A stretch of 64,000 nt of DNA from Candidatus Levyibacteriota bacterium. Lineage in GTDB: Bacteria; Patescibacteriota; Microgenomatia; Levybacterales; UBA12049. The translations under genes and the position numbers were made by a program. Below, piece by piece: positions 22,857-63,584 of this stretch (its first letter is position 1; each line of letters starts with the position of its first letter). The DNA is taken from NCBI GenBank assembly GCA_963790825.1, contig CAWBPM010000003.1:253681-317680 (forward strand), written 5' to 3'. The notes beneath the pieces were generated by a model. It searched no databases and was not told where the DNA came from. It saw only the letters and a program-made list of their open reading frames with translations.

Positions 22857-22955
22857 ATACTAAGCCTAGCATAAAAATGAGACAAAAAACAACTCTATAA
22901 GACAGGTTAGATTTTAGCTTTATTTGAGGACTTAAAACAGAAGAATTTTATATTT

Positions 22956-24740
22956 TTAGTTAAATTTATACTTTTTGCCGTCTATATTCATAATAAAAGA
23001 TTGATTGGCAAGTATATGAGAATAAACAAAAACTATCTCCTGATTAGTCGGATCCAGTTGATAGGCTTTTTTTATTGCATCCAGAGCAGCTTGTTTGTCA
23101 TGCAGTTTAAGTTTAGTAAGTGCCAGAAGTTTCCACAGATCGGAAGAATCCGGTGAATCCGGATAATCCTTTACCGCTTCTTCCAAAAAGTCATTCGCTT
23201 TATTTGGGTCATCGTAATAAACCAAAATCGGTGCGTAATTACGATAAGTTAACAAATAATGCTTATGTTGTAAAACCAGCTGGTACTGCTTTGCATGAAG
23301 CGCCAATTCATAATACTTCTCTGCTTTTTGGAAATCTCCCATTCTCCCATATGTAGCTCCCATATTTTGCAAATTCAGCTCGTTTGGTCTTTGGGAAATA
23401 GATATAGTAAGATGTTTTAGCGCATCACTATATTTATTTATATTTAAATACTCAACTCCGAGGTCATTCTCAATATCAAAATTATCACTAATTAAAATAT
23501 CATAGTTATAAAGAGTAAAAACATCATGCCAATCATTATTTCTGATTATTGTTCTCACTGATAATGAGAGGACAATAATAATTGCAATAAAAACAATGAC
23601 TGACGCATTCATCTTTAGCTTATGAATAATTATCTGGCAAATGATCCCGAATATTCCCAGCAGTCCTACCAGCGGAAAGTAAAACCAGCGGTCTGCAACA
23701 GTCATATCGAGAGGGAAAATCTGAGCTATCATTAAAAATCCCAGGACGAGCCAGGCGGAGAAAAAAAAGAAAGGCTTGGAGAATTGTTTATGATGCTTTG
23801 CGGTATATATACCTACTAAAGTAATAAAAGCAATAAATGACAGATCTATGATGAGCGGGAGATAAAGGGTTGAAAAATGCAGAGAGGTTATTACCCATTG
23901 CTGATCAGTGGCAAGCGTTTTAGGAAAAAAGGACGTTTTGAGATAGTAAAACATGATCATTGGCATATTAAGCAAACGTTCAAACAAAGAGAGACTGGCT
24001 ATGGGAGTTACCGGTCGCGCTGATATATCCACTTGTCCAATAAAAATACGGATAAAAGCGTAGAGACTAATGGTAATAAAACTGCCAATTGAGAGTTTAC
24101 TTAGGTTATTTTTCAAAAAAAGAAAACTATAAATCAGAATCATGCAAACAAAAAGTATCCCTGTTTCTTTTGTGAGTAACGAAAGAAGTGCTAAAGAAAA
24201 AATAATTACAAGTTTTTTACCAGACAGGTTTTCGTTCATAGAAAGCAAGAGTGACAATGCTCCAAAGAGAAAGAAAAGAGGGTTGATCGTCTGTGCAATG
24301 TAAGATACCGCTTCGATGTTGATTGGATGAACCAGAAATACAATTGATAAAAAAAGGGTAATTCCCTTAGAAAAATACTTTTGAAAAAAAATAAAGATAA
24401 TAATTGTACAGATAATATGTAATACCAACTGAAGAAAATGGTAGATAAAAGGTGCATTAGCAAAAGCTGTACAGAGAATAGAGAAGTATAATTCGGGTAT
24501 TGGTCGATATTGTCCGCCGTTATTAAATAGATTATTCCCAAAAGCATAGAACAGATTTATATGATACGTATATAAATTTCTGATTATATACGTATAATCG
24601 TCCCAGACAAATCCGTTGAAAAGCATATTGAAGTAGACGATAAATCCGACGATTGCAATAATATGGATCGCTTTCTTTGTGGTTAGAGGAATAAAGAAAC
24701 GCTTTAGAGAAAACTCCTGTTGGTTGGGCGTATCCTGCAT
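22956..24740 (-). CDS. TMTC-like GT-C family glycosyltransferase (DUF1736-type polytopic N-domain) with C-terminal TPR repeats
   Basis: N-terminal FNMLFNGFVWDD motif and ~10 TM helices; C-terminal TPR-like repeats (ALKHLTISISQRPNELNLQNMGATYGRMGDFQKAEKYYELAL...). Confidence 0.6.
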   Translation of the reverse strand: MQDTPNQQEFSLKRFFIPLTTKKAIHIIAIVGFIVYFNMLFNGFVWDDYTYIIRNLYTYHINLFYAFGNNLFNNGGQYRPIPELYFSILCTAFANAPFIYHFLQLVLHIICTIIIFIFFQKYFSKGITLFLSIVFLVHPINIEAVSYIAQTINPLFFLFGALSLLLSMNENLSGKKLVIIFSLALLSLLTKETGILFVCMILIYSFLFLKNNLSKLSIGSFITISLYAFIRIFIGQVDISARPVTPIASLSLFERLLNMPMIMFYYLKTSFFPKTLATDQQWVITSLHFSTLYLPLIIDLSFIAFITLVGIYTAKHHKQFSKPFFFFSAWLVLGFLMIAQIFPLDMTVADRWFYFPLVGLLGIFGIICQIIIHKLKMNASVIVFIAIIIVLSLSVRTIIRNNDWHDVFTLYNYDILISDNFDIENDLGVEYLNINKYSDALKHLTISISQRPNELNLQNMGATYGRMGDFQKAEKYYELALHAKQYQLVLQHKHYLLTYRNYAPILVYYDDPNKANDFLEEAVKDYPDSPDSSDLWKLLALTKLKLHDKQAALDAIKKAYQLDPTNQEIVFVYSHILANQSFIMNIDGKKYKFN

Positions 24741-24809
24741 GTCATTATGCTAACATTAAAGATAAAGTTATTTCAATTACAATTTGCTTCTTAGAACCAG
24801 CCTCTTTTT

Positions 24810-26602
24810 TTAGTTAAATTTATACTTTTTGCCGTCTATATTCATAATAAAAGATTGATTGGCAAGTATATGAGAATAAACAAAAACTATCTCCTGATTA
24901 GTCGGATCCAGTTGATAGGCTTTTTTTATTGCGTCCAGGGCAGCTTGTTTGTCATGTAATTTAAGTTTAGTAAGCGCCAGAAATTCCCATAGATTCGAAG
25001 AACCTGGTGAATCCGGATAATCTTTTACCGCTTCTTCCAAAAAGTCATTTGCTTTATTTGGATTATCATAATAAACCAAAATCGGTGCGTAGTTACGATA
25101 AGTTAACATAGCATGTTTATGTGGTAAATATGCCCCATAATCATCCGCGTGAAGAGCCAGTTCATAGTATTTCTTTGCATTTTGTATATCTCCCAGCCGT
25201 GTATATACAATCCCAATATTTTGTAAATCTAGTTCATTCGATCTTTGGGAAACAGATAAAGTAAGATGCTTAAGCGCATCATTATATTTATTTATATATA
25301 AATACTCAATTCCAAGGTCATTCTCAATTTCGAAATTATCCTCTACCCTACTATCATGAGCAAAAAGCGTCATGCCGTTATACCAATTGGCGTTACGTAT
25401 TATTGTTCTGACAGAAAAAACAAGAAGAAGCACAATTATGCAGACTACAGCAATCTTAGTAAGCTTTCTGTTAGGAAAAATTGCCTCTTGTACTCCAATA
25501 CCAAGTACTCCAAGTAGTCCAACCATAGGGAAATAGAAATACCGATCGGCTACCGTCATATCCAAAGAAAAGAGTTGCGAATGCATAGTAAGTCCCGACA
25601 AAAACCAGAGGGAAAAGAAAAGAAAAATAGGGAAAGTCTTGCGATTCGATCTAAATGTGTATATTCCCAGAAGAATGAGAAGTACGAAAAAAAGCATATC
25701 GATGAGAAGCGGGATGTAAAAGGTTGATAAAGCAATATTTGTAATAACCCATTTTTGATCAATGGCCAGTTTTAAAGGAAAGAAGAAAGTTTTGAGATAA
25801 TAGAATACAACCATGGGGATATTGATCAGCCGCTGGGTAAACGTTAGGTTACTGATTGGATTATCGAATGTTACCTTTGCAAAGAAGACATGTCCTATGC
25901 CAAAACGCATCAGGAAATACAGGAGAGAGATTATTATTCCGAAAATTACGAAGGTAGACAATTTTTGTCTTTGAAACAAGACTCCATAGACTAAGATGAT
26001 AAATAGAAATAGAATACCGGTTTCTTTTGTCAGAAGACTGCATAATAATAGAAGCGGTATTAATAAGATGTATGATTTTTTATAGTGTATTTTCTACTTA
26101 ACAACAATGCTGAGATTCCGAAAAGAAAAAATAGAACGCTGTTAGCACCAATTATATATGAAACTGACTCAACTTGAATAGGATGAATAAGAAAAAGTAA
26201 GGAGAGAAACAACGCAAGATACCTGGAGAAGAACCTCTTAAATAGAAAATACACCAGTATCGTGTTTACGATATGCAGAAGGAGCTGCGTTATATGGTAG
26301 ATGAAAGAAGTGTCTTGGAATACTGAATACAATAGAGAAGTGTACAGGAAGTATATTGGGCGGTAAAACCCGGCAAAAGAACTATTAAACAAACTTGGGC
26401 CAAATATTGTTGAAAGATTAATTGAATGAACTTGCGGGTTGTTAAGAATATAAGTTATATCGTCCCAGACAAATCCGTTGAAAAGCATATTGAAGTAGAC
26501 GATAAATCCGACGATTGCAATAATATGGATCGCTTTCTTTGTGGTTAGAGGAATAAAGAAACGCTTTAGAGAAAATTCCTGTTGGTTAGACGTATCCTGC
26601 AT
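24810..26602 (-). CDS. second TMTC-like GT-C/TPR paralog, split into 26060..26602 and 24810..25979 by a 1-nt frame disruption in a T6/A6 run (26076..26081)
   Basis: N-terminal 50 aa and C-terminal ~95 aa nearly identical to the upstream paralog (DNA near-identical at 24598-24770 vs 26458-26630 and 22950-23075 vs 24812-24937). Adding one A restores ...TIKKSYILLIPLLLLCSLLTKETGILF..., colinear with copy 1. Confidence 0.55.
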
Positions 26603-26652
26603 GTCATTATGCTAGCATTAAAGATGGGGTTATTTCAATTACAATTTGCTTC

Positions 26653-27561
26653 TTAGAACCAGCCTCTTCCTTTTTTCCCTTCCTCAGAAAATTCTTCAAG
26701 CAGTTCTCTTTGTCTCCTGGTTAAATTTTTTGGTACTGTTACTTTTAGCTTAACGTACTGGTCTCCCCGTCCCGATCCCCGGACGTGAGGAACACCTTTT
26801 CCGCTTAAGCGAACGAGTGTGTTTGGCTGAGTCCCTGCGGGAATTTTAATCTTTACTTCGCCGTCGATAGTCGGAATGTTTGTTTCCCCGCCTAGCGCCG
26901 CATCAACGAAGGCAATGTCTTTTTCAACAACAATATCCGATCCCTCGCGGTGGAAAAGGGGATCCAAAGTAACCTCGACAACAATATCATATTCACCAAA
27001 ACGAATTCTTGAACCGCTATCAACTCCTGCCGGGATTTTTATTCTTTGTTTTTTGCCACTAATCGTAACTTCTTTTTCTACTCCATGTACCGCATCGGAG
27101 AAACTGAGTCTGATTTGGTAAGCTGTCCTCCTTGCAGCTCTGCCGAAAGGTGATGCGCCGCCGAAAAACTGTTCAAAAATATCGAAAGGATCCGAGAATC
27201 CGCCGAAATCAAAATCCGCACCGCCGCCATTCGTAGAATAGGTATAGGTAAACGGTCCGTATCTGCCTCCCTGCTGACCAAAACCGCCAAACGGCCCGCC
27301 CTGAGCTCCGCCGAAGGGCCCCTGACCTCCTGCGCCTTCAAATGCAGTGTGTCCCAGCTGGTCATATTGCTGCCTTTTTTGTTCACTGCCCAGCACCTCG
27401 TAGGCCTTATTAATTTCTTTAAATTTTTCCTCGGCTTCTTTGCTTTTATTCCGGTCCGGATGATACTCTAAAGCCAGCTTTCGATACGCCTTTTTGATTT
27501 CGTCAACCGATGCAGTTTTCGAAACACCTAAAATGTCATAATAATCACGTGATTGCGGCAT
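26653..27561 (-). CDS. dnaJ: DnaJ-class co-chaperone without zinc-finger domain (CbpA/type II-like)
   Basis: J domain [32 protein letters not shown] with HPD; G/F-rich region; two C-terminal beta domains; 302 aa. Confidence 0.85.
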
Positions 27562-46694: not shown

Positions 46695-48488
46695 TTATTC
46701 AGGTATTTCCGCTTCTGCGACGAGGTTTTCGGGAAGGCGGAACAGTCCTTCATCCAGTCTTTTTTGATCCAGGAAATGACTGATAAATCCAACTGAACGT
46801 GAGAGAACAAAAAGTGCGTTAAAGAACTCAGTTTCAACCAATTCCTGAAGTTTCGCATCGGAAAACCCTTCTTTTTCCGATAAAATATCCAGGAGAACTG
46901 CTGCGATCGCGCCGTCAACATTGAGAATTAAACTGCCTTTTTTCTCGGTGGTTATTTTTTCGACAGATTTTGCAAATGTCGTAAATCTTTTTTTCGGATA
47001 TTTCTCAACAAATTTAAGAACTGCAACTACACGGGGATCCGGTAAATCTATCCTGTATTTCCTGTGTCCAATTCCTGAGATGTATTGTTTTTTCAGAGCA
47101 AATTCTTCCACAAAATCACCTGGGAGGGTTCCTGATACTACACCGGTCAACCAATTTTCCGCTGCCTGATTAATCGCTCCGCCAAAACGGGGACCAATTG
47201 TTAACAACCCGGAAGCCAAAGAAGAAACCAAGTCCCGACCGGCTCTTGCAGTAATAATCGTATTTACCGCTCCTGAGACATACGGTCCGTGATCAACCAA
47301 GAGACGTAAGATAAAATCGACAAATGTTTCAAGTTCCCGTGAAACTTTTTTCTGGCCTAAAAACATCGAGATAGTAACTCCGGCAAAGGAGCGTGAATCA
47401 ACAAACGATAATAAATCTTCACCCAAAAGTGTTGCTTTTCCATCTTTATCACCTGAAATACTCGTGGTTATAAGTCCAGGCTGCCGATTTTGAAATTCTC
47501 TCAATATTGGTTCATAATTTTTTTCATCTGTTATCTCTTTCCCTTGGCAATTTTTTATCAGTGTTATAAATTCGCTAAACGTTTCCGCTACCTTTGCTCC
47601 GGCATTTTTCAAAGCAATGCGCTTGGCAGAGGCTGTTTCTCTGTCAGATTTTGCCATGGCTTTGGCGTGTCCAAATTGCGGCGGCTCTGAAAAAAGCTCG
47701 GCAATCGATCCGGCAATGTAACAAATTACTTCTTTCGTTACTTTTTTTTCTTTAAGTAGTGTCGCAAGTTCATATTCATCGGCTCCTCCTAATTCGCCGA
47801 AATAGATAATTGTTTTCGTTTTCGGATCTCTCTCAGCTTCTAAAAATGCCTCTCTGGGCGAAGTTATGGGAAAGCGGTCTCCGCCAAAAGAAAGAGCAAA
47901 TGATATGCGTCTACCCTGCTGAGTGACAATTCTGAGAAGCTCTCCTGTCATACCGCCGGAAGCGGAAAATACTGCCACATCACCCGGGGTAAATAAATGA
48001 GAAGCAATCAGCTGCCGGTAATCCACTCCGCCAATTGCACCAAGTTTTAAATGCCCTGGAAGAAGCAGGCCGACACTTGCAGGACCAATTAGAAATTTTT
48101 TTAGTTGTTTTGCCTTGTGATATAAACTAATTGCATGTTTTTCAGGAACATTTTCAGCAAAAATTACGCCGCCCAGTATATTCGGGCAGGAATCTAAGAT
48201 CTCTTCTGTACTTGTCAAAACCCGGCGCGGCGATAAGAGATTAAGAAAAAATGCTTTTTGACCGCGCAAATCCGTAGGAACATCCTGAATTGTCTTATAC
48301 ATCGGGAGCAGGATTTCCTGTTTTCCCCAAAAAAATCGCGCGAATCGTCTACCTGAAGCTATCAAATACAAAATACTCGGACTTCTGCCCGAAAGATAAT
48401 CAAAATCCAATATCGACTGGATGATCGGATAATTGCCTAAGACAACAATTTTTGTTTCTTTTTTTCGAATTTCTTCAAGATTAATCAT
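46695..48488 (-). CDS. aclA: ATP-citrate lyase large subunit (CoA-binding + CoA-ligase + citrate-synthase-like domains)
   Basis: SCS-alpha-like region with phosphohistidine motif QFGHAKAMA; C-terminal citrate-synthase-like GIGHRKYRIDLPDPRV; 597 aa. Confidence 0.7.
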   Translation of the reverse strand: MINLEEIRKKETKIVVLGNYPIIQSILDFDYLSGRSPSILYLIASGRRFARFFWGKQEILLPMYKTIQDVPTDLRGQKAFFLNLLSPRRVLTSTEEILDSCPNILGGVIFAENVPEKHAISLYHKAKQLKKFLIGPASVGLLLPGHLKLGAIGGVDYRQLIASHLFTPGDVAVFSASGGMTGELLRIVTQQGRRISFALSFGGDRFPITSPREAFLEAERDPKTKTIIYFGELGGADEYELATLLKEKKVTKEVICYIAGSIAELFSEPPQFGHAKAMAKSDRETASAKRIALKNAGAKVAETFSEFITLIKNCQGKEITDEKNYEPILREFQNRQPGLITTSISGDKDGKATLLGEDLLSFVDSRSFAGVTISMFLGQKKVSRELETFVDFILRLLVDHGPYVSGAVNTIITARAGRDLVSSLASGLLTIGPRFGGAINQAAENWLTGVVSGTLPGDFVEEFALKKQYISGIGHRKYRIDLPDPRVVAVLKFVEKYPKKRFTTFAKSVEKITTEKKGSLILNVDGAIAAVLLDILSEKEGFSDAKLQELVETEFFNALFVLSRSVGFISHFLDQKRLDEGLFRLPENLVAEAEIPE

Positions 48489-48499
48489 ATTTTTATTCG

Positions 48500-49675
48500 T
48501 TATCGCAAATACTGTAGTGCTTCCAGTACAACGTCAGTCAACACTTTTTCAGGTCCCCACACAACACCAAGTAACTCTTCTCTACCCAGAAAATCCCGCA
48601 TCAGAGATAATCCTTCTTCCTGGTTCGGGCCGCCGCGGCGAACGAAAATTTTTACGTTTTGTTTTTGAAGCATATTTTTTACCTCTTCAAGCGCTTTTAG
48701 AATTCCCCGAAAGGTAATTCGAACATCGGTAAAATTAGCAACTCCGCCGCCTATTACTAATGCCTTCTTTTTCGCAGAAGAAACTAAGAGAAGATCGAGC
48801 AAATTTTTAGCATAGATATATGATTCTTCTTCAGTCGGGTTTCCGCTATATTCGCCGTAATTGGCAACTTCCCGTCCAAGCCCTTGGTTATATGCTTCGT
48901 CTGCCAGGGCAATACTAGCGCCTCCTCCTGAGAGTATCATAAAAAGACTGCCGTTTGGATTTAGAACAGTAAGGTTGAATGCCGACTGGCTGTTTTCTGC
49001 CAATTTCAGGATGTTTTCTTCCTGAGTAGTTTTCGGCTTGCTTTCCCTGAAGTCTGCACTTGTCCATGCACCTTTAACCATAGATTCAGCTGCGCTATCA
49101 ACTTCCACCGCAGCATCAAGAAAAAATAAAGAATCCTTGCGGACCAAAAGAGGATTTATCTCGAGAAAAGAAAAATAATACTGATCAAATAGATCAATGA
49201 GTTTTGCTAACAAATTCTTAGGTAAAGAAGGAATTTCAATTTGCTGCAACCTTTCCTTCCTGCTTATAATTTTCTTTACAATTTTTTCGGGGTGTTGTTC
49301 TATGTCTACTCCACCTTGTTCTGAGAAAAGCAGCATGTAGCCCTCCCGCACTCTTTCAAGTGAAAGGTATTTTTCTTGTTTATTTTCATGTGCGATATAC
49401 GGTTCAATAAAAAATTGCCTGTAGCCTTTTTTTTGCCAATCTTCTATATTACGCTCTATCTCTTTAGCCATTTTGTTAATAGCCACCAATCCTTTTTTAA
49501 ACCTGCCTTTTACGCCTTGATCAACTTTTACAACGTAAAACGCAGTTTTATCAAGACTTTGTATCATTATTTGTAGATTTTCACTGGCCAAATAACATAA
49601 GCCTGGTTTTGGATCCTTAACAAGTGGCGAAAGCAATTGTTTGGCTTTGTATTCGCTGATCTTTTTTCTTGCCAT
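48500..49675 (-). CDS. aclB: ATP-citrate lyase small subunit (ATP-grasp, SucC-like)
   Basis: MARKKISEYKAKQLL... ATP-grasp succinyl-CoA-synthetase-beta-like fold, 391 aa, 12 bp upstream of aclA. Confidence 0.7.
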   Translation of the reverse strand: MARKKISEYKAKQLLSPLVKDPKPGLCYLASENLQIMIQSLDKTAFYVVKVDQGVKGRFKKGLVAINKMAKEIERNIEDWQKKGYRQFFIEPYIAHENKQEKYLSLERVREGYMLLFSEQGGVDIEQHPEKIVKKIISRKERLQQIEIPSLPKNLLAKLIDLFDQYYFSFLEINPLLVRKDSLFFLDAAVEVDSAAESMVKGAWTSADFRESKPKTTQEENILKLAENSQSAFNLTVLNPNGSLFMILSGGGASIALADEAYNQGLGREVANYGEYSGNPTEEESYIYAKNLLDLLLVSSAKKKALVIGGGVANFTDVRITFRGILKALEEVKNMLQKQNVKIFVRRGGPNQEEGLSLMRDFLGREELLGVVWGPEKVLTDVVLEALQYLR

Positions 49676-54060: not shown

Positions 54061-54141
54061 ATCCGCAATTCAACAATCTAACACTTTATAAATTGCACAT
54101 TATACATTTTTCATTTTTCTTAATACCTAATTGACAATGCT
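54061..54141 (+). repeat. direct repeat copy A (~80 bp; 39-bp core 54099..54137 identical to 59570..59608), ends in TTGACAA
   Basis: Core ATTATACATTTTTCATTTTTCTTAATACCTAATTGACAA identical in both copies; upstream ~40 bp similar (TCCGCAATT...TTTATAAATTG.ACATT). Confidence 0.7.
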
Positions 54142-54150
54142 TTAGTCTGC

Positions 54151-54519
54151 GTGGCATCATTTAATTATATGAAGGTTATCAATTTTATCACGGGGTTTAT
54201 TATCGTTATGCTTCCGGTGTTTTGGGTAAGTATTGCACTCGTTGGATCGATCGGACTACTTATACTTCGGGGCAATACATTTCTTCTGTCCATTATTACT
54301 TTTGCGATTGCACTCATTTTTACTGTTATCTTGTCAACAATTCTCGGGATGGCACTCGGTAATTCATTGGTCAAAGGTGGTGGCAATGCTCTCGTAGCCA
54401 GAATTCTCGCTCTTGTCATTGTGGTCGGTATATTCTGTTTTATCTTCTTTTTTGCTGTGCATTTATCAGTGGCGAGCCAAGCTCTGCCGACTACTTCGCT
54501 GCTAAATCCGGGCAAATGA
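54151..54519 (+). CDS. small membrane protein (3 TM), hypothetical
   Basis: 122-aa hydrophobic ORF directly downstream of repeat copy A. Confidence 0.35.
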   Translation: MASFNYMKVINFITGFIIVMLPVFWVSIALVGSIGLLILRGNTFLLSIITFAIALIFTVILSTILGMALGNSLVKGGGNALVARILALVIVVGIFCFIFFFAVHLSVASQALPTTSLLNPGK

Positions 54520-54699: not shown

Positions 54700-54728
54700 T
54701 AGTGGAATTTAATAGGAAGGGTATCTAT

Positions 54729-55001
54729 ATGGACTGGAGTACACATAAAAAACAATTATTAAAAGATCCGAAAGTAAGACAAGCCTTAAAAGAGACTGAA
54801 TTAGAATATCAGGTAGCTCGTGCTGTAATTGAAGCGAGAATTAATAAGGGATTAACTCAACAAGATTTAGCACAAAAACTCAATACAACTCAATCTGTTA
54901 TTTCTCGTGTAGAAAATGCGAAAACTACACCTACACTTGGTTTTCTTAAAAGGTTAGCGACTGCACTGAATGCATCTCTACAAGTTCAGTTTAAAGCTTA
55001 A
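54729..55001 (+). CDS. XRE-family helix-turn-helix transcriptional regulator (HigA/antitoxin-like)
   Basis: LTQQDLAQKLNTTQSVISRVENAKTTPTLGFLKRLATAL HTH_XRE signature; start taken at ATG 54729 (MDWSTHKK) instead of ORF-track 54702. Confidence 0.7.
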   Translation: MDWSTHKKQLLKDPKVRQALKETELEYQVARAVIEARINKGLTQQDLAQKLNTTQSVISRVENAKTTPTLGFLKRLATALNASLQVQFKA

Positions 55002-55264
55002 CCTACTCTCCGCAATTTTATCTTTAATTGTCTGCTCAGATAAATAATCTGAATTACTCAAGTATTAGGTGTAGAAAGCCGGTCATATCGGCGGGAAAGG
55101 AAGAAGAAAATAATACCGGCTGCCCCGAAACCTTTTTAGGATCCATATCCCCTTCTCTATTTAGGACATGCAGATTGTCTACCTGGCTGGAAATGGCTTT
55201 GTTTAAGATCGAGCCAAGCTGCAGAAAGTCCTCATTCGTGCGTGATATTCGTTAATTTGGGTAC

Positions 55265-55291
55265 TTGACAACTCCTGTTATTAGGTATAAT
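55265..55291 (+). promoter_or_regulatory. near-consensus sigma-70 promoter TTGACA-N15-TATAAT immediately upstream of ATPase gene
   Basis: TTGACA 55265-55270, TATAAT 55286-55291; ATG at 55301 only ~9 nt downstream (short or leaderless mRNA). Confidence 0.4.
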
Positions 55292-55300
55292 AATGGGAGT

Positions 55301-56440
55301 ATGGATCCCAATATTAAGTATATTAAGCGTGATTTGGAAGCTACTCTCCATACTTACCTTAACAAAGGTAAGGTTATTGTGTTATATGGAGCTCGACAAG
55401 TTGGGAAAACAACTCTTACTCAAAATCTTTTCAATGATAAAAATAACGTATTATATCTCTCATGTGACCAATCCCGTATTCAAGAACAGATAGTCCCTGA
55501 TGCATTAGCGCTTAGTAGGGTAATTACTGATTATAAAAATGTTATTTTCGATGAAGCGCAATATCTTAGTGACCCTGGATTAATTTTAAAAATCTTTACA
55601 GACAATTTTCCGGATAAAAATGTAATTGCTTCGGGATCATCCTCATTCGATCTTGCTCATAAATTAACGGAGCCATTAACAGGACGGCACTATAAATTTT
55701 TACTTTTCCCATTAGTACTATCTGAAATGGCACATTCAGTATCTCCGATAGATATAAAGTTCCAACTTGAACAAGCTCTTATTTATGGAACTTATCCTGA
55801 AGTTTTTAAACAAAAAACTAATGAGGACAAAATATTAATTTTACAAACATTAACTGACGCTTATCTCTATAAAGATATACTGACTTTTAATCTTGTAAAA
55901 AACAGTCAAAAAGTAAAAGAACTATTGATTGCGCTTGCACTACAAGTCGGTAACGAAGTTTCTTATTCTGAACTTGCTAATACTGTAGGCATTGATAGAA
56001 AAACCATTGAATATTACATCGACCTGTTGGAAAAATCCTTTGTGATTTTCAGATTGTTCGGATTTAGTCGAAACTTAAGAAGCGAGATAAACAGAAAAGT
56101 TAAAATATATTTCTACGATACAGGTGTTAGAAATACGCTCATTAATAATTTTAATGACTTGACACTTCGTAATGACGGCGGTGCAATATTTGAAAATTTT
56201 GCCGTAGCAGAAATGGTTAAAAAAGAAGCAAATAAACCACAGAAAGCAAACTTTTATTTTTGGAGAACATATGAACAGAAAGAGATCGACTTAATATCTG
56301 AAAAAAACGGGGTTATTACTGCATATGAAATGAAACTACATAAACCTAAGAAGATAAACAGCTTTACATCATTTCAAGAATTATATCCGGGAAGCAAATT
56401 GAACATTATCACGCTTGATAAACTTCTCGAAGAGATATAA
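55301..56440 (+). CDS. AAA+ superfamily ATPase of the COG1373 / AAA_14-DUF4143 type
   Basis: VIVLYGARQVGKTTL P-loop close to N-terminus, DEAQ Walker B, C-terminal DUF4143-like region; ORF-track start 55265 is a TTG inside the promoter, ATG 55301 preferred. Confidence 0.65.
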   Translation: MDPNIKYIKRDLEATLHTYLNKGKVIVLYGARQVGKTTLTQNLFNDKNNVLYLSCDQSRIQEQIVPDALALSRVITDYKNVIFDEAQYLSDPGLILKIFTDNFPDKNVIASGSSSFDLAHKLTEPLTGRHYKFLLFPLVLSEMAHSVSPIDIKFQLEQALIYGTYPEVFKQKTNEDKILILQTLTDAYLYKDILTFNLVKNSQKVKELLIALALQVGNEVSYSELANTVGIDRKTIEYYIDLLEKSFVIFRLFGFSRNLRSEINRKVKIYFYDTGVRNTLINNFNDLTLRNDGGAIFENFAVAEMVKKEANKPQKANFYFWRTYEQKEIDLISEKNGVITAYEMKLHKPKKINSFTSFQELYPGSKLNIITLDKLLEEI

Positions 56441-56747
56441 TTCTTTTTTTTTGTTTGGGGGTGCACTACTCTCTTAAGTTACTACTCATGCCTACTCCTC
56501 CCCGTTTGGGACTACGCGAATTTCCTATTTTGGATATTTACCGCTTCCACGTGTTCAACTACTGATTGAGAATAAAGAATGTTTGATCCTTGCTTAGAGA
56601 AACCAAAGAGGTTCCCGGTAGATCTAAGAAAAAGTAAAAAACAGTGTTTTATTGACAAACCTACGCCCAAATGATTACGATTAAAAATCCTTTCGCAGCC
56701 CAAAAATACGTCGCCAATTCCAAATAACCCCGATAAGAAATCTGTAA

Positions 56748-57506
56748 TTACTCTTTTGTAGCATTTAAGCTTTTTTCTGAAAGTAAAAATGTATAAATTA
56801 TTTCAATTTCTTCTGGAATAAGAGTGGCATTTGGTTTATGAAGAATAAGCCAATTATGAAATTTATGTTCTCCGATCCAAATTCCCGGTTCTATTTCTCC
56901 TTTAATGGTATTTTTATCTATATTTCCATTAACAAATTCCAGCACACTTGTTACGTTATACAGTTTATTGAATTGTTGTTGTAAATTAGTACTTAACCAA
57001 TTTTTCTCCGCCCAAGTTTGCTTAATATAATCTTTTTCTGGAAGTCTATTGTTAATAAAAAGCTGTCCATTTCTGAAACTTATGATGCCTCTATGCGCTT
57101 TTACTTCAATTGTGAAAATTCCCGTCGGTCCGATAATTATATTATCTATGTTTCCTCTACCTGTACTAAAATCGTTAATCCATTTATATCCCGTAGGTAA
57201 TTCTTCAAGAGATTTATCTACTTTCCATTCTGCTCCGGCGCCTTTTCCCCAGGTTTGATAATTCCTCTTTATATCTCGCCAATTTTGTTTATCCCATCGT
57301 TTTATAATATTAAAGATTATGTATACAATTATTGAAGCAATAATAACACCCGTAGATGTATAAGCAACATCTTGCGCCATCTTGAGATACATAAATGCCA
57401 CAAATAATGCAAAAACTCCGAGAATTATTCCAATCCAGCGGAAAATCTTTTTGTTCTTAATATATGTTTTGTATGTATATGAATCTTTATTATCAGCCAT
57501 GAACAA
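56748..57506 (-). CDS. membrane-anchored NERD (nuclease-related domain) protein
   Basis: Two N-terminal TM helices, then GRGNIDNIIIGPTGIFTIEVKAHRGII, characteristic of NERD domains. Confidence 0.6.
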   Translation of the reverse strand: MFMADNKDSYTYKTYIKNKKIFRWIGIILGVFALFVAFMYLKMAQDVAYTSTGVIIASIIVYIIFNIIKRWDKQNWRDIKRNYQTWGKGAGAEWKVDKSLEELPTGYKWINDFSTGRGNIDNIIIGPTGIFTIEVKAHRGIISFRNGQLFINNRLPEKDYIKQTWAEKNWLSTNLQQQFNKLYNVTSVLEFVNGNIDKNTIKGEIEPGIWIGEHKFHNWLILHKPNATLIPEEIEIIYTFLLSEKSLNATKE

Positions 57507-57638: not shown

Positions 57639-58070
57639 TTAAGGTAAATATAATTTGACGAACTTCTTCTGTTCGTTAACTTCAATTAGGGGAAATTTAT
57701 CCATAAATCCCTCTCTCCCTAGGATAGGCATATTTTGATCAAATGAGAAATCTATTTCTGTTACAAAATTAATTCCTCCAACAAATAGTTTTACTGTATG
57801 TGTATATGCATCTATTGGTTTGCTTACTCCTATTCCTCCAATTTTTTTATTTATACCTTTTTTCACATCGATTCCTAAATTAGCTGCTATAATTGCAGGA
57901 AATAAATTCCTATCCGATCCTGTATCAAATAATGCTTCGATTTTATGCAAGAACATCTTATGGTTCATCGATAGCATCAATGGTATTCTTGGACGAAGCA
58001 CAGTTACCTGCTTACCGGTAACGTTGTTTATATTGGCATCAGGAACATAATAAAATGTCACATTTTTCAT
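57639..58070 (-). CDS. retropepsin-like (clan AA) aspartic protease
   Basis: EALFDTGSDRNLFPAIIAANLGI with DTGS active-site motif in a 143-aa protein; start overlaps transposase stop by 1 nt. Confidence 0.55.
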   Translation of the reverse strand: MKNVTFYYVPDANINNVTGKQVTVLRPRIPLMLSMNHKMFLHKIEALFDTGSDRNLFPAIIAANLGIDVKKGINKKIGGIGVSKPIDAYTHTVKLFVGGINFVTEIDFSFDQNMPILGREGFMDKFPLIEVNEQKKFVKLYLP

Positions 58071-59338
58071 TATGGAGACAAATATTGATTTGCAGGAGGA
58101 AGGAATGAAATAGTTAAACCCTTTTCATTTTTAATTAGCTTCAATAACTCATCTAATTTTTTAGCAGACTTAACGATTTTTTTTCTATCTTCAGTAAAAG
58201 CCACCCATTTATTTTGATATTTAATTAATTGTTTTATATCCATACTTACATTATAATCACCATTAATAAAATTGCAAGTTGATGTAGAGGTTACGGAGTT
58301 ATTAGACATACCTCCTTGTTGTTGCAGATATCCCAGTGGAGTTTTAAGTCCCAAGGATTTATGTACCCGCTTTGTATTGTAGAATAGCAGATATTCAATG
58401 AGTTTTGAAGAGAAGAGTTTCGGGTCATGGAATAAATGAAGATTTTCATCAATGAATTCTTCCTGAATTGTTCTGTTGAATCGCTCAATAGTTCCATTGA
58501 TCTTGCAGCATCTTGGATAGATAAATACCTGATGGATATGTTGTTGTTTCAAGTATGCTTCAAAATCCCCCAGAAACTCCAGTCCATTGTCTGTTTGTAT
58601 GGTGGTAATTTGAATGGGATAAACAAACTGCAGTTTCTTGAAGAAGTCTACAGTTACACCGCTCGTCAGTTTTGTATAAGGCAGGCTAAATGCAAACCTT
58701 AACTTCACATCAATTGCTGTTAAAAAGAATACTCTTACTCCATCAACAAATTTAATCACTGTATCCATTTCCATATAGCCAAAGCTTTCCGGTCTGGGTG
58801 GTCTTTTAATCCTGTCTCGCTTCTTTCGTTTGGCCTGGGCAAACTTATGGGAGGGATTATGATAGATCTTGCCACTCTTTTGAAAAAAGTAATTGTTACG
58901 CTTGATGACTTTCCCAATGGTTGATTCCTGAATAATAGGCAGGTCTTCCTTTAGACAGTACTCATCGAGCAATGGTTTAATTTTCTCTTTCCCCAGTCTC
59001 ACATGCTCTTCTCTTAAGAGCTTGATATATGCAACTACTTTAGGATGGGTTTCCATGACTCTTTTTGTTTTCGGAGTTGTTGGAGTGGGAATAAGTGAAG
59101 AAATGGAATTCCTACTCATCCGTAATCGTTTCTTCCATACAAAGATAGTGTTTCTTCCAACACCAAATGCTTTCTTAGTAGTTTTCTCTCCATACTCATC
59201 ATAAAACTCTATTATCTTTAGTCTCTCTTTAGCTACTTCATCTTTAGAGAATCTTTTTAGACTCCTCAGCATTGTTTTCACCTCCTCAATGCCTTTGATT
59301 CTACTAAAGATTGGATATGCTTTTGCGTAATGATCCAT
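58070..59338 (-). CDS. IS481-family-like DDE transposase/integrase (HTH + rve core) with ~90-aa C-terminal extension
   Basis: N-terminal HTH; rve core ...IQTDNGLEFLGDF...IYPRCCKINGTIERFNRTIQEEF...YNTKRVHKSLGLKTPLGYL. Confidence 0.75.
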   Translation of the reverse strand: MDHYAKAYPIFSRIKGIEEVKTMLRSLKRFSKDEVAKERLKIIEFYDEYGEKTTKKAFGVGRNTIFVWKKRLRMSRNSISSLIPTPTTPKTKRVMETHPKVVAYIKLLREEHVRLGKEKIKPLLDEYCLKEDLPIIQESTIGKVIKRNNYFFQKSGKIYHNPSHKFAQAKRKKRDRIKRPPRPESFGYMEMDTVIKFVDGVRVFFLTAIDVKLRFAFSLPYTKLTSGVTVDFFKKLQFVYPIQITTIQTDNGLEFLGDFEAYLKQQHIHQVFIYPRCCKINGTIERFNRTIQEEFIDENLHLFHDPKLFSSKLIEYLLFYNTKRVHKSLGLKTPLGYLQQQGGMSNNSVTSTSTCNFINGDYNVSMDIKQLIKYQNKWVAFTEDRKKIVKSAKKLDELLKLIKNEKGLTISFLPPANQYLSP

Positions 59339-59523
59339 AGTTACGAATTGTCTAATATGTTTCGTAACTTATACAGTTGAACTGTTTACGTCGTACAACA
59401 CGTTATCAGAATTAGTACCGCACTGGGACGCCGGCGTGGTAGGAGCAGATGCTGCTGTGATTTTGCGGCGGTTACAAAAAGAAAAAGTTGTCCGGTCTAG
59501 CTCTTAACTTTTATCTCCCCACA

Positions 59524-59616
59524 CCTCCGCAATTTAATAATCCAGCAATTTATAAATTGTACATTCTGCATTATACATTTTTCATTTTTCTTAATACCTA
59601 ATTGACAAAGCCTTTA
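59524..59616 (+). repeat. direct repeat copy B (see 54061..54141); ends TTGACA-N17-TTTAAT
   Basis: 39-bp core 59570..59608 identical to copy A; followed by plausible -10 TTTAAT (59626-59631). Confidence 0.7.
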
Positions 59617-59815
59617 AAAAGTTATTTAATAGGCTTAACAATTAATCAAGAGCGGTGGCGAGAGTTCTGGCTCAGTGACCCACCCGGCAACCGGTAATTA
59701 TTAAGCGGTGCCAAACCCAGCCCTTGGAAAGGGACGGATTTGACCAAGAAAATTTGGTAAACAATTTTTTTGTATTATACCTCTCTTTCAGGAGAGGTTT
59801 TTTGTTGGAAAGGAG
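59617..59815 (+). promoter_or_regulatory. ~200-nt GC-rich structured leader (riboswitch/attenuator-like) ending in an intrinsic terminator just before the RBS of 59816 gene
   Basis: GAGCGGTGGCGAGAGTTCTGGCTCAGTGACCCACCCGGCAACCGG...AGCGGTGCCAAACCCAGCCCTTGGAAAGGGACGGATTTGACC, then hairpin + T7, then GGAAAGGAGGTGGG-ATG. Confidence 0.5.
59779..59804 (+). terminator. intrinsic terminator hairpin ACCTCTC-TTTCA-GGAGAGGT followed by TTTTTTG
   Basis: Read directly from sequence; 11 nt upstream of start codon 59816. Confidence 0.65.
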
Positions 59816-60238
59816 GTGGGTATGATAAGTATCGATAAAGATTCTTTGTTTGTTTTTTTGCCAACCCGTTTAGAGATAAAAGAAAGACCTGAGCTTAATG
59901 TTTTCCCTTTTAATGTATTTGTTTCATCTCACGGATTAAATGAGGAAGGAAAAATGGTTGTGTGTTCAGTCTTTTACGATCCCGACTTATCTACTTATAA
60001 AGATAACGGTGATATTAAAAGTTTAAGTTATAAAAATATTTTCAATCAGGACTATAAACTTATTATTTCTTTTAATGCCGTTAAGAATACTTACAGTTGC
60101 GCTAAATACAATAAGGATAAAATTGTAGGCTGTGCTGACGGGGAGAATGATTGGAAACGATTTTTTCTACATGTCGGGTTACTGGGTTTTGCAAAAGGAG
60201 AAACCTATTTGTTTGATGAAATTAAACAAACAAACTAA
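59816..60238 (+). CDS. hypothetical protein, paralog 1 of tandem pair
   Basis: 140 aa; shares ERPELNVF..NVFV, DYKL(I/V)IS(F/Y)N, W(K/R)(R/Q)FF(L/I)HVG(L/I)LG(F/L)A(K/N)GET(Y/C)LF with the next ORF. Confidence 0.5.
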   Translation: MGMISIDKDSLFVFLPTRLEIKERPELNVFPFNVFVSSHGLNEEGKMVVCSVFYDPDLSTYKDNGDIKSLSYKNIFNQDYKLIISFNAVKNTYSCAKYNKDKIVGCADGENDWKRFFLHVGLLGFAKGETYLFDEIKQTN

Positions 60239-60276
60239 AGGTCTTAAATCTTTAAGGTGGAGGGGGATGAAATATT

Positions 60277-60678
60277 ATGGATATAAAAAATGGTTCCCTA
60301 TATTCTTTTATACCAAGACCCTTGGCTATAGAAGACAGACCGGAACTAAACGTATTTTCCTACAATGTTTTCGTTGCAATGTACAGAATAAACCAGGAAG
60401 GAAAAAGAGAAATGGGGTCAGTAGTGTATGAACCAGATTTAACAACTTACAAAAGAGACGGAGATATACAAACTTTAAGTTATTTAAATAAATATAATCA
60501 CGATTATAAGCTTGTTATTTCGTATAATAGCGAAATAAAAACTTACCGCTGTGATAAATTCAAGGGAGAAGAAAACTTAGGAATTGCCTTAGGAAATAAT
60601 TGGAAACAATTTTTTATTCATGTCGGGATACTTGGTCTTGCCAACGGAGAAACTTGTCTATTTCAAGAAATTAATTAA
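60277..60678 (+). CDS. hypothetical protein, paralog 2 of tandem pair
   Basis: 133 aa; ~45% identical to 59816..60238; RBS GGTGGAGGGGGATG upstream. Confidence 0.5.
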   Translation: MDIKNGSLYSFIPRPLAIEDRPELNVFSYNVFVAMYRINQEGKREMGSVVYEPDLTTYKRDGDIQTLSYLNKYNHDYKLVISYNSEIKTYRCDKFKGEENLGIALGNNWKQFFIHVGILGLANGETCLFQEIN

Positions 60679-60762
60679 TAAACTTTTCTTATAACTAGTT
60701 TCGCATTTTGCAACTTGTACTTGAAATATAGGATTTACGAGTTTATCTTGATCCTTGCGCAG

Positions 60763-60788
60763 AGGAGCCGAAGAGGCTCCTAATTATT
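60763..60788 (+). terminator. hairpin AGGAGCC-GAAGA-GGCTCCT followed by AATTATT between convergent genes
   Basis: 7-bp perfect stem read directly from sequence; weak T-tract. Confidence 0.4.
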
Positions 60789-60816: not shown

Positions 60817-61725
60817 TTAAATCTGTTGTTTAATAATATCAACTGAGCCCAAATTGTGCGCCGAAGATATAGCTTGAAGAGTCTTTATAGCTTTTAATAG
60901 CACAATAACCTTACTTTTATAAATACCACTTCCCGCACCTCCACAATATTCATTTATTGATGGATATTTTTTATATATTTCATTTAACGTTAAATTATTC
61001 TGATCTTTGGCAGTATCAATTATCCCCTGGGAACAGCCAGTATTATTAACGTCAGTATATTTAGTTAATAAATTGTTGAAATAATCCAGATGTGAAATAT
61101 TATCAAGCAAGAATGCCTGCGTAGATGCGTTCCATATATAATAATCCTTCCACTCCATCGCGCAACCGGCGCATCCTATTGCTCCTAAACTGCGTGTTTC
61201 GGTAAAAGAAGATTCTGTATTTGAAAATTGATAATTTAAATACCTGCCGTAGATATCTCCTTCTTCGTTTTCAGGTGAATATACTCTTTTGGGGATACCA
61301 TTCTGCATATGATATATTCCTATTGTTTCAATTGTGCCTGTGGGATGCTCATCATACGCAGTTATGACAAAAAACTGAGGCACATCATCTGGGAATACTT
61401 TTATATCTTTCACCTGTGTAAACAAATTAGGTACCGTATATTTATTTTCTAAAACTCTGCTACCTAAAGTTAAATACCCTAACGTATTAAAGTCTATATG
61501 ATCTCCGCAAAAGATTATGTTTGCCGATAGCCCTTTTAGATTTGAATATGAATCACAAGTTTGATTATTGCTATCAACTGACCCAATGAGAGCAACTTTA
61601 TTAATTTTTGCTGGACCGCTGCTTTGGATCACCATGTGCTGTTGCGCACGAGGTCGTGCAAAAAAATAGTATGTATATAAATTTGTAGTAATAAGAATTA
61701 ATATGAATAATAAAATTTTCTTCAT
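60817..61725 (-). CDS. hypothetical secreted/membrane-anchored protein with multiple Cys
   Basis: 302 aa; N-terminal MKKILLFILILITTNLYTYYFFA hydrophobic segment; Asn/Tyr-rich. Confidence 0.45.
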   Translation of the reverse strand: MKKILLFILILITTNLYTYYFFARPRAQQHMVIQSSGPAKINKVALIGSVDSNNQTCDSYSNLKGLSANIIFCGDHIDFNTLGYLTLGSRVLENKYTVPNLFTQVKDIKVFPDDVPQFFVITAYDEHPTGTIETIGIYHMQNGIPKRVYSPENEEGDIYGRYLNYQFSNTESSFTETRSLGAIGCAGCAMEWKDYYIWNASTQAFLLDNISHLDYFNNLLTKYTDVNNTGCSQGIIDTAKDQNNLTLNEIYKKYPSINEYCGGAGSGIYKSKVIVLLKAIKTLQAISSAHNLGSVDIIKQQI

Positions 61726-62699: not shown

Positions 62700-63584
62700 T
62701 TATATCTCATTCGCAGAAACTATGGTTTTTAATTCTAATCCAAGTGCTTTGAAATGCTCCTCACCACATCTGATTTTTGCTGCTTCGTTATTTCTTAACT
62801 TGTCAAAGTCTTTTGTACTTTTTGTTTCACGAACCAGATAAAGTGTAGAATCTTCATGCTTTACAATAGCCCAATCAGGATTGTAAGTACCAAGTGGTGT
62901 TGATACTTTGAACCAAGCAGGTAATTTAACAAAAAGTTTAATATATTCTTTTCTTTCTAAATCTTCTGCAAACCTTCGCTCAACTTCAGATTCAAATTCG
63001 ATACAGTCATAAACGGATTTTTTGACAGATACGAGATTGTTTAAATATGAAATGATCTCCTCTTCTTCAAATAACCTCATTTCATATTCTTCTCCCGCAA
63101 TTTTTTCATATTTGATTCCACTTAAAATTAGCTTTTGCAGTTCTCTTTTTATAATTTCAACAACAATATCCATAAATTTTTGAGGATTAATTAGAAACTC
63201 CTCTAGTCTGCTTGAGCGTATAAGTATTTGAGCAATGGTATGTCTTGTTAATTCTGTCTCCTTTTGTATATAGCTAATAATGTCGGGCAATAGAAATGAC
63301 GATTCAATCGTTGTAACTTGATTCTTAACCTCAGTAGATTCAACCCCCCTTTCATCAATATCAACAAGTGCTTTAATATACTGAATCTTTATTGGGTTAA
63401 TTCTATCCATTAATTTCAAATCTGACACACAATTCCCAATTAAGTCATCTGTAGTATATACAACTGAATACGTAGTTTTTTTATTGATTTTTTCCCAAAG
63501 AATTTTAAAAGTTATATTGAAAGCCATCAGCCCCGTTTTTTGTTTATTAATGGTCATGGTAATGACAGTGAAATTACTGGACAC
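62700..63584 (-). CDS. PD-(D/E)xK nuclease-fold protein resembling the C-terminal endonuclease domain of type III restriction Res subunits (stand-alone or fragment)
   Basis: KLPAWFKVSTPLGTYNPDWAIVKHEDSTLYLVRETKSTK contains the PD...E.K motif arrangement. No helicase domain upstream. N-terminus overlaps the plus-strand ORF, so the real start may be M10 or M20. Confidence 0.45.
   Translation of the reverse strand: MSSNFTVITMTINKQKTGLMAFNITFKILWEKINKKTTYSVVYTTDDLIGNCVSDLKLMDRINPIKIQYIKALVDIDERGVESTEVKNQVTTIESSFLLPDIISYIQKETELTRHTIAQILIRSSRLEEFLINPQKFMDIVVEIIKRELQKLILSGIKYEKIAGEEYEMRLFEEEEIISYLNNLVSVKKSVYDCIEFESEVERRFAEDLERKEYIKLFVKLPAWFKVSTPLGTYNPDWAIVKHEDSTLYLVRETKSTKDFDKLRNNEAAKIRCGEEHFKALGLELKTIVSANEI

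Follow-up and report, generated by a model that had tools for sequence, protein, structure and literature searches.

We propose that a SAM-I (S-box) riboswitch controls a pair of small genes in a Candidatus Levyibacteriota bacterium. We analyzed a 64-kb stretch of its genome (contig CAWBPM010000003.1, positions 253,681 to 317,680 of the forward strand), which we call the window, and the element in question is the leader RNA in front of two paralogous genes at 59822-60678. In our reading, to which we assign a probability of about 0.88, this leader is a SAM-I riboswitch and serves the two-gene operon as a transcriptional OFF switch. The leader belongs to the Rfam family for these riboswitches, its structure covaries across related sequences, its terminator is complementary to part of its aptamer, and the arrangement is conserved in relatives. 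From these observations, we infer that the RNA binds S-adenosylmethionine (SAM) and that binding turns the operon off. Coordinates are in the numbering of the window and refer to its plus strand unless another is given.

Identification of the aptamer

When the entire window was compared to Rfam 15 (4227 families) with cmscan and gathering thresholds, the only match at threshold was RF00162, the SAM-I or S-box riboswitch, at 59640-59744 on the plus strand (49.7 bits versus a gathering threshold of 44.4, E = 2e-8, spanning the whole model, positions 1-108). Neither c-di-GMP-I nor any other Rfam class reached its threshold. In a permissive local search of 59350-59900 (E ≤ 10), SAM-I was again the top match (E = 1.8e-10). 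The lower-scoring matches that overlap it include other families from Rfam clan CL00012, and SAM-I is the best-scoring member of the clan. We discarded sub-threshold matches to Plasmid RNAIII, PyrR, and Phe leader, which are driven by the terminator hairpin (see below). Our own covariance model (R1) scores the aptamer at 75.9 bits and has no other match in the window.

An earlier note on this DNA, made from the letters alone, had described a riboswitch-like leader with a transcription-attenuation platform before a paralogous pair of genes. This description is borne out by the Rfam search and by the leaders of homologous genes. The note had also suggested three analyses: the search of Rfam gave a match above threshold, to SAM-I; the folding of alternative structures predicts a terminator and an antiterminator that are mutually exclusive; and the leaders of homologs contain a SAM-I aptamer with covarying structure.

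The cmscan alignment, along with a check of the individual pairs, gives the following architecture. In P1, AAUC (59644-59647) pairs with GAUU (59737-59740); these four pairs are flanked only by U.U and U.G. P2 (59652-59685) includes the pair G59652-C59685, GUGG/CCAC (59655-59658 with 59680-59683), and GAG/CUC (59662-59664 with 59671-59673). It has kink-turn-like GA/GA bulges: in terms of sequence positions, rather than geometry, the GA dinucleotides at 59660-59661 and 59677-59678 are where a kink-turn is expected, and they are conserved in relatives. P3 (59686-59712) has the form GGCAACC ... GGUGCC, with pairing of 59686-59689 with 59709-59712 and of 59691-59692 with 59707-59708, and it holds conserved nucleotides of the ligand pocket. 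J3/4 is AAA. P4 (59716-59736) is formed by C59716-G59736 and by CCCUU/AAGGG (59721-59725 with 59729-59733), and CUGG in the loop of P2 (59667-59670) forms a pseudoknot with CCAG (59717-59720). The conserved core, comprising AAGAG in J1/2, GGCAACC and GGUGCC in P3, and the A-U and U-A pairs atop P1, is present in its entirety. By our reading, the positions that contact SAM in the structure of the riboswitch from T. tengcongensis correspond here to A59645, U59646, G59650, GGCAACC, GGUGCC, A59738, and U59739, and all of them are present. (Within these, the contacting bases are presumably the two uppermost pairs of P1, A-U and U-A; G in AAGAG; C, A, and C in GGCAACC; and U and G in GGUGCC.) The GC content is 0.57 at 59650-59749, as compared to 0.21-0.34 in the flanks.

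To compare the structure across relatives, we built a covariance model from 16 aptamers and a hand-written SAM-I structure, and we realigned 18 distinct aptamers with it. In this alignment, which was fitted to the structure so that the pairing figures lean towards it, 89.2% of the 547 pair cells form standard pairs, as compared to 35-44% if the 3' partners are slid by 1-3 columns. There are changes on both sides in 16 of the 31 pairs, and the values observed exceed those of all 500 shuffles. The P3 helix (helix 4) is 94% paired, with compensatory changes in 6 pairs. The pseudoknot offers a fairer test, as the aligning model did not contain it: in the relatives, its four pairs are 100% paired and three of the four covary (CUGG/CCAG, UCGG/CCGA, CUAG/CUAG, and UUGG/CCAA). 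The outer three pairs of P1 are poorly kept throughout the group, so the short P1 in the window is a trait of the group and not a sign of decay. (A plain MAFFT alignment of these sequences gave a poor consensus with RNAalifold, because P2 was misaligned by one column; we used the covariance-model alignment instead.)

Predicted switching mechanism

An intrinsic terminator at 59779-59803 was found by a terminator scan and is supported by its folding energy. The hairpin (ACCTCTCT/TTCA/GGAGAGGT, 59779-59798) has an 8-bp stem with a folding energy of -11.2 kcal/mol and a UUCA loop, and it is followed by TTTTT G TT, so the U-run extends to 59803. A terminator-like hairpin is not significant by itself in this region (2 found versus 1.1 expected). 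Between the aptamer and the terminator there is a spacer hairpin (ACCAA/UUGGU, 59743-59758), which appears in both the minimum-energy and the centroid folds and is conserved in the closest relative of the locus (L017).

The 5' arm of the putative antiterminator, GAAAGGGA-C-GG at 59727-59737, draws on the 3' strand of P4, on J4/1, and on the base with which the 3' strand of P1 begins. We folded 59640-59790, which corresponds to a nascent transcript that ends ahead of the synthesis of the terminator's 3' arm. In the minimum-energy fold, G59727-A59734, G59736, and G59737 pair with C59780, C59781, and U59782-C59789. The stretch 59780-59789 is at once the terminator's 5' arm with its loop and the 3' arm of the antiterminator, and the two structures are mutually exclusive. 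For the full leader, with the energy of the ligand excluded, the folding energy is -44.7 kcal/mol if the antiterminator is enforced and -41.0 kcal/mol if P1, P4, and the terminator are enforced. According to these models, a few kcal/mol of SAM-binding energy would shift the balance to termination.

We propose that transcription would begin at around 59637, from TTGACA-17-TTTAAT, and that the first ~105 nucleotides would fold into the four-helix aptamer with its pseudoknot between the P2 loop and P4. If SAM is bound, then P1 and P4 would be held closed, the hairpin at 59779-59798 would form along with its U-run, and the polymerase would terminate before it reached the genes. If SAM is scarce, then 59727-59737 would pair with 59780-59789, the terminator would be blocked, and the operon (59822-60678) would be transcribed. 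This would be OFF logic of the classical S-box kind.

The complementarity between terminator and aptamer recurs in the relatives. A terminator hairpin with a U-run is present in 16 of 18 distinct leaders of relatives, and its 5' arm is complementary to the aptamer. This arm (consensus CUUUCC) complements GGGAAAG in the aptamer, or in some cases the AAGAG region. Two leaders (L018, 1373-1500, and L030, 1372-1500) are without a terminator, and their start codons lie 17-30 nt past the aptamer. In these two, the ribosome-binding site is probably provided by the purine-rich P4/J4-1 segment, with control at the level of translation.

Conservation in relatives

A scan of the genomes of GTDB species gave seven related loci, all of them in metagenome-assembled genomes (MAGs) of Patescibacteria: Staskawiczbacteria, Paceibacterota, Saccharibacteria (two), "Patescibacteria group", Portnoybacteria, and Kuenenbacteria. 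In six of the seven, Rfam identifies a SAM-I aptamer just upstream on the coding strand. The seventh (L005) is cut by the end of the contig: it starts with the last bases of the aptamer, which are followed by the terminator. A scan of metagenomes gave 18 further loci, all 18 of which have the aptamer. After duplicates were removed, there were 23 distinct leaders with the riboswitch, including the contig-cut 3' fragment and one that was found by our own model only. The aptamers of the group have Rfam scores of 48-76 bits.

Among a sampling of more distant cluster representatives of the regulated protein, three have a SAM-I aptamer upstream at the Rfam threshold (P0004, P0013, and P0060, at loci L036, L038, and L040). 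P0100 (L041) has an aptamer according to our own model only, at 63.6 bits. For P0129 (L042), no upstream aptamer was found. P0148 and P0157 (L012, L013, and L035) have a tRNA gene upstream and an ordinary, heterotroph-like gene context. The locus of P0038 (L037) reaches the end of its contig and is uninformative upstream. Overall, the gene lies behind a SAM-I riboswitch in all of the tested relatives with an identity of about 32% or more.

In the closest relative (L017), the leader is 86% identical to that of the window, and a promoter-like TTGACT-17-TTTAAT is found at the same place. The differences between the two leaders include a compensatory change from G-C to A-U in P2 and compensatory changes in the stem of the terminator.

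We also made some incidental observations about the relatives. In most of them (L002-L008, L019, L024, L031, and L034), a conserved ACAAYTGAATA lies just 5' of the aptamer, and many of these also keep TCGATTTTTTATTTG just 3' of it; the window and L017 lack both flanks. An extended P1 is unconvincing because these flanks are only ~65-75% complementary. In three relatives, a LOOT RNA (RF03000, 80-87 bits) is found at a distance of a few hundred bases to 6 kb from the riboswitch operon (L007 12050-12168; L030 1151-1264, minus strand; and L031 2238-2366); the one in L030 is on the strand opposite to that of the aptamer and stops 108 nt upstream of it. A frameshift interrupts the gene that comes first after the riboswitch in the Kuenenbacteria GW2011 MAG (L008 2235-2623), but this gene is intact in metagenome contigs that are otherwise identical (L014 5001-5393). 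The frameshift is either an assembly error or a sign of a pseudogene.

Alternative explanations

Several results weigh against our proposal. The score for RF00162 is only 5 bits over the Rfam threshold, P1 has just four Watson-Crick pairs, and the distal part of P3 is irregular. The unconstrained minimum-energy fold of the full leader fails to reproduce the aptamer and is barely more stable than those of shuffles (z = -1.9), although unconstrained folding commonly misses RNAs with multiple junctions and pseudoknots. Neither of the two downstream genes is among the known methionine or SAM genes, and Pfam, NCBIfam, PHROG, and PADLOC place their products in no family. And both the assignment of the leader as a SAM riboswitch and its switching are predicted from sequence and folding models.

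The nature of the downstream genes could be explained if the aptamer derives from SAM-I and has an altered ligand, such as methionine, S-adenosylhomocysteine, or some other adenosyl compound. Riboswitches of other classes are known to include variants with different specificities, the whole group controls a single unusual gene family, and its Rfam scores are modest (48-76 bits). However, the positions that we take to contact SAM are kept in the window and in nearly all of the relatives, and there is no systematic substitution in the core, so we view an altered ligand as improbable. We give similarly little credence to a decaying, non-functional relic of a SAM riboswitch that was left beside an insertion sequence (IS) element in a variable region. 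P1 is short and the score is near the threshold, the end of an rve transposase gene lies 300 nt upstream, and mobile and defense genes abound in the region. But the promoter, aptamer, antiterminator, terminator, and ribosome-binding site are all intact; the leader is 86% conserved in L017, with changes that are compensatory and not disruptive; and the weak outer P1 is common to all 18 aligned aptamers.

Two other classes of regulators seem very unlikely. The earlier note had pointed to a faint resemblance between the leader and the c-di-GMP-I (GEMM) riboswitch, which amounts to a by-eye likeness of GGUGCCAAACC...GAAAGGGAC to the core motifs of GEMM and nothing more. This was wrong: RF01051 does not appear even at E ≤ 10 with permissive filters, whereas SAM-I matches the same bases with E = 1.8e-10. 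The quoted motifs map to P3, J3/4, and P4 of SAM-I; specifically, the segment GGTGCCAAACCCAGCCCTTGGAAAGGGACGGATTTGAC is the 3' strand of P3, J3/4, P4, and the 3' strand of P1, and not a GEMM core. An attenuator that depends on a protein or a tRNA (of the PyrR type, a T-box, or a leader peptide) is equally unlikely. The terminator hairpin gave matches to the PyrR binding site (23 bits versus a threshold of 54) and to the Phe leader (18 versus 55), but both are far below threshold and overlap the terminator only, and no open reading frame (ORF) of at least 40 amino acids that could encode a leader peptide is present in 59339-59815.

The regulated proteins

The first gene of the operon (59822-60238) encodes a beta-rich protein of 138 amino acids, which we refer to as a C domain, and the second (60277-60678) encodes a paralog of 133 amino acids. 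The two proteins are 53% identical. L017 has a single gene, whose protein is 77% identical to that of gene 2 and 47% identical to that of gene 1. Gene 2 is therefore the ortholog of the gene in L017, and gene 1 is an extra, more diverged duplicate.

A word-indexed search found few close relatives of the 138-amino-acid protein. With a profile search of 1.84 billion cluster representatives, the family comprises 267 clusters at E ≤ 1e-3 and 187 clusters at E ≤ 1e-10. This is therefore a real family, of ~130 amino acids, that has no name. The regulated proteins are not members of any Pfam, NCBIfam, PHROGs, or PADLOC family at a meaningful E value; PHROGs gave four matches with E of 0.003-0.03. A profile search of PDB found nothing, and neither did tblastn of the regulated protein against collections of phages and plasmids.

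The AlphaFold2 model, from an alignment of 80 sequences, is confident (a predicted local distance difference test, or pLDDT, of 93.7 and a predicted TM-score, or pTM, of 0.86). After a short N-terminal strand and a helix come six antiparallel strands in succession, and the fold closes with a helix at 111-120 and one more strand. In the 138-amino-acid protein, the residues that are nearly invariant are P14, L17, P23, Y52, P54, Y70, N72, K95, G107, W111, F114, F115, and G122. Reading the sequence, we see neither a signal peptide nor a membrane segment, and the products are predicted to be mostly beta, cytoplasmic members of a ~130-amino-acid family.

Foldseek found nothing with E < 0.05 in either PDB or BFVD (the best match in PDB had E = 0.12, with TM-scores of 0.33-0.35). 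The nearest structural neighbors, which are weak, are lipocalin-like or calycin barrels (Tp0751 pallilysin, 5jk2; GID4; and retinol-binding protein), which are small barrels that bind ligands or peptides. The likeness lies in a meander of antiparallel strands, after which come a short helix and one final strand. However, with E of at least 0.12, TM-scores of at most 0.35, a root-mean-square deviation of 7-11 Å, and no similarity of sequence, these proteins differ from ours. The likeness does not speak for homology to lipocalins or calycins, as there was no significant superposition and no sequence match in PDB.

The N domain and other partners

About half of the relatives also encode the N domain, a further small protein, either between the riboswitch and the C gene or as a fusion to the N-terminus of the C protein. 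The N domain has ~85 amino acids and an alpha/beta fold; G-x3-G-x5-C is invariant in it, one H is nearly so, and FYE forms a motif at the C-terminus. Its family comprises 64 clusters, all of which are labelled as hypothetical. The model of the N domain has a pLDDT of 94.4, and neither a profile search nor Foldseek found a match in PDB. The N domain is encoded nowhere in the 64-kb window.

The C-domain family is linked to HD_4 genes more than once, and it has other occasional partners. An HD_4 gene (a HD hydrolase of the RelA/SpoT type) is in the riboswitch operon in L038 (2439-3206, 57.4 bits), and another is directly upstream of the riboswitch in L040 (1091-1735, 42.8 bits). The C domain of P0038 is fused to an N-terminus that is weakly HD-like. 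In L041, a gene for an SNase nuclease (775-1431) lies 12 nt downstream. Elsewhere in the C-domain family, there are fusions to CpXC (a zinc ribbon), TPR, and dual-specificity phosphatase domains.

Promoter, repeats, and genomic setting

Reading the sequence directly, we identified a putative sigma-70-type promoter at 59602-59630, with TTGACA (59602-59607), a 17-nt spacer, and TTTAAT (59625-59630); its counterpart in L017 is the TTGACT-17-TTTAAT mentioned above. Transcription would start at around 59637-59638. This promoter is missing from the output of our scan for consensus promoters because the scan demands an A at position 2 of the -10 hexamer. The Shine-Dalgarno sequence GGAGG (59812-59816) is 5 nt ahead of ATG at 59822, and this is likely the start codon of gene 1, as it is better spaced than the GTG at 59816 that was chosen by the ORF finder. 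The features that the earlier note had read from the sequence (the promoter, the GC-rich segment, the terminator hairpin with its T-run, and the strong ribosome-binding site) are all there; it was right about the strength of GGAGG, but its start of the gene at 59816 is less likely than 59822. No ORF of at least 40 amino acids overlaps the leader on either strand.

The -35 hexamer lies at the end of an AT-rich upstream element at 59557-59614 (repeat family D10). This is copy B of a repeat, and it is 88% identical to copy A (54086-54143); a gapped alignment extends the similarity of copy B to ~59526. Taken as a whole, a ~90-nt AT-rich repeat that ends in TTGACA (54063-54143 and 59526-59614; 88% identity over 58 nt) precedes two unrelated genes or operons: an ORF for a membrane protein of 122 amino acids (54151-54519) behind copy A, and the riboswitch operon behind copy B. 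In copy A, TTTAAT is spaced by 23 nt from TTGACA, as compared to 17 nt in copy B. The repeat looks like a portable module that provides an upstream element and a -35 box.

Between the transposase gene and the repeat, there is a second GC-rich patch (59400-59499, 0.50 versus ~0.3), for which Rfam gives no match and which folds no better than shuffles (z = -0.5). Downstream of the operon, between it and a convergent gene (60817-61725), there is a GC-rich hairpin, GGAGCC-GAAGA-GGCUCC (60764-60780), which we found by direct reading and which is absent from the list of the terminator scan. It is part of a 33-nt repeat (56583-56615 and 60748-60780, 82% identical, family D3), and both sites are intergenic. 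The hairpin may be the terminator at the end of the operon, or it may be a repeated terminator-like element.

The housekeeping genes in the window include PNPase, IF-2, NusA, two ClpB-like ATPases, DnaK, MetRS, class-I LysRS, and ATP-citrate lyase. The last of these corresponds to two adjacent genes on the minus strand (46695-49675) that match the subunits of ATP-citrate lyase (Citrate_bind, Citrate_synth_N, CoA-ligase, and citrate-synthase domains), which is of note if the 751-kb contig is a fair guide to a small genome. Also on the minus strand is a 2147-amino-acid ORF (16099-22542) with internal repeats (periods of ~102, 180, and 1377 nt), and beside it are near-duplicate segments of genes for TPR proteins (22953-26673, 94% identical).

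The last 10 kb of the window look like a variable region of the defense type. At 54702-57506, there are genes for an XRE-type helix-turn-helix regulator, a PDC-S01 candidate defense ATPase (445 bits), and a NERD-domain protein. The match of an ORF at 62700-63584 is confined to the C-terminal third of a type III restriction endonuclease, and this ORF may be a truncated gene. The gene that ends 300 nt upstream encodes an rve-type integrase or transposase of 422 amino acids with a weak DUF5678-like C-terminus. It is directly followed by an ORF of 143 amino acids with weak matches to retropepsin-like aspartyl proteases (Asp_protease_2, E = 1.6e-4). The two together occupy 57639-59338 on the minus strand, and this pairing is unusual for a bacterial IS element. 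Several of the relatives of the operon lie close to restriction, CBASS (cyclic-oligonucleotide-based antiphage signaling), or toxin-antitoxin genes. This context is suggestive only, because the small genomes of Patescibacteria are rich in such genes.

Possible roles

The RNA adds nothing new about the mechanisms of riboswitches, as it belongs to the known SAM-I class. What makes it of interest is the conserved link, across 23 distinct loci, between an OFF-type SAM sensor and a single unnamed gene family. If the switch is OFF with SAM, then the products would be made when SAM is low, and the recurrence of the sensor before the same family implies that these proteins are wanted under that condition. 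Most likely, the C-domain family is needed when SAM or methionine is low. Going by the logic of the regulation, our preferred guess is that the family acquires, salvages, or buffers methionine or SAM, or else responds to the shortage.

We tentatively suggest, at somewhat less than even odds, that Patescibacteria tie a SAM-I riboswitch to an undescribed protein system that is switched on by the depletion of SAM, with the C protein, the N protein in about half of the loci, and occasional HD_4, nuclease, or CpXC partners. The ultra-small Patescibacteria have minimal metabolisms, and little is understood of how they acquire or economize on methionine and SAM. If the role of the family is directly biochemical, then the family would represent a new route for acquiring, salvaging, or sparing methionine or SAM in organisms that lack the known pathways. 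The use of riboswitches to guide the assignment of function has uncovered transporters and enzymes before. A bolder variant is that the riboswitch senses the depletion of SAM, for instance by SAM-degrading enzymes from phages, and triggers a response to stress or conflict. This variant is prompted by the frequent context of defense islands and by the toxin-type fusion partners elsewhere in the family. In either case, the two small families (C and N) have confident models and no detectable relatives in Pfam or PDB, so they are well-defined targets for biochemistry. In a limited search, which is not proof of novelty, we found no literature that links SAM riboswitches to Patescibacteria or to the C-domain family.

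Comparison with known riboswitches

All that the leader has in common with c-di-GMP-I riboswitches (RF01051) is the layout, with an aptamer in the 5' leader followed by a terminator; the architecture is different. SAM-IV and SAM-I/IV, which are in the same clan (CL00012), share the architecture of the ligand-binding core with SAM-I. Unlike them, the element in the window has the P4 helix and the pseudoknot with the P2 loop that are typical of SAM-I.

The closest comparison is with SAM-I (S-box) riboswitches such as those of yitJ and metI from B. subtilis and metF from T. tengcongensis. As compared to a textbook S-box, the element in the window has a short P1, with four Watson-Crick pairs, and its antiterminator is formed mainly by the 3' strand of P4 and J4/1 instead of mainly by the 3' strand of P1. 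It precedes an unnamed family instead of met, cys, metK, or transporter genes, and its relatives are in MAGs of Patescibacteria, whereas S-box regulons were defined in Firmicutes and other phyla. What it shares with these riboswitches is the four-way junction of P1-P4, the placement of the GA dinucleotides in P2, the pseudoknot, and the AAGAG, GGCAACC, and GGUGCC core, along with a terminator and an antiterminator that draw on the 3' side of the aptamer and that are predicted to form an OFF switch.

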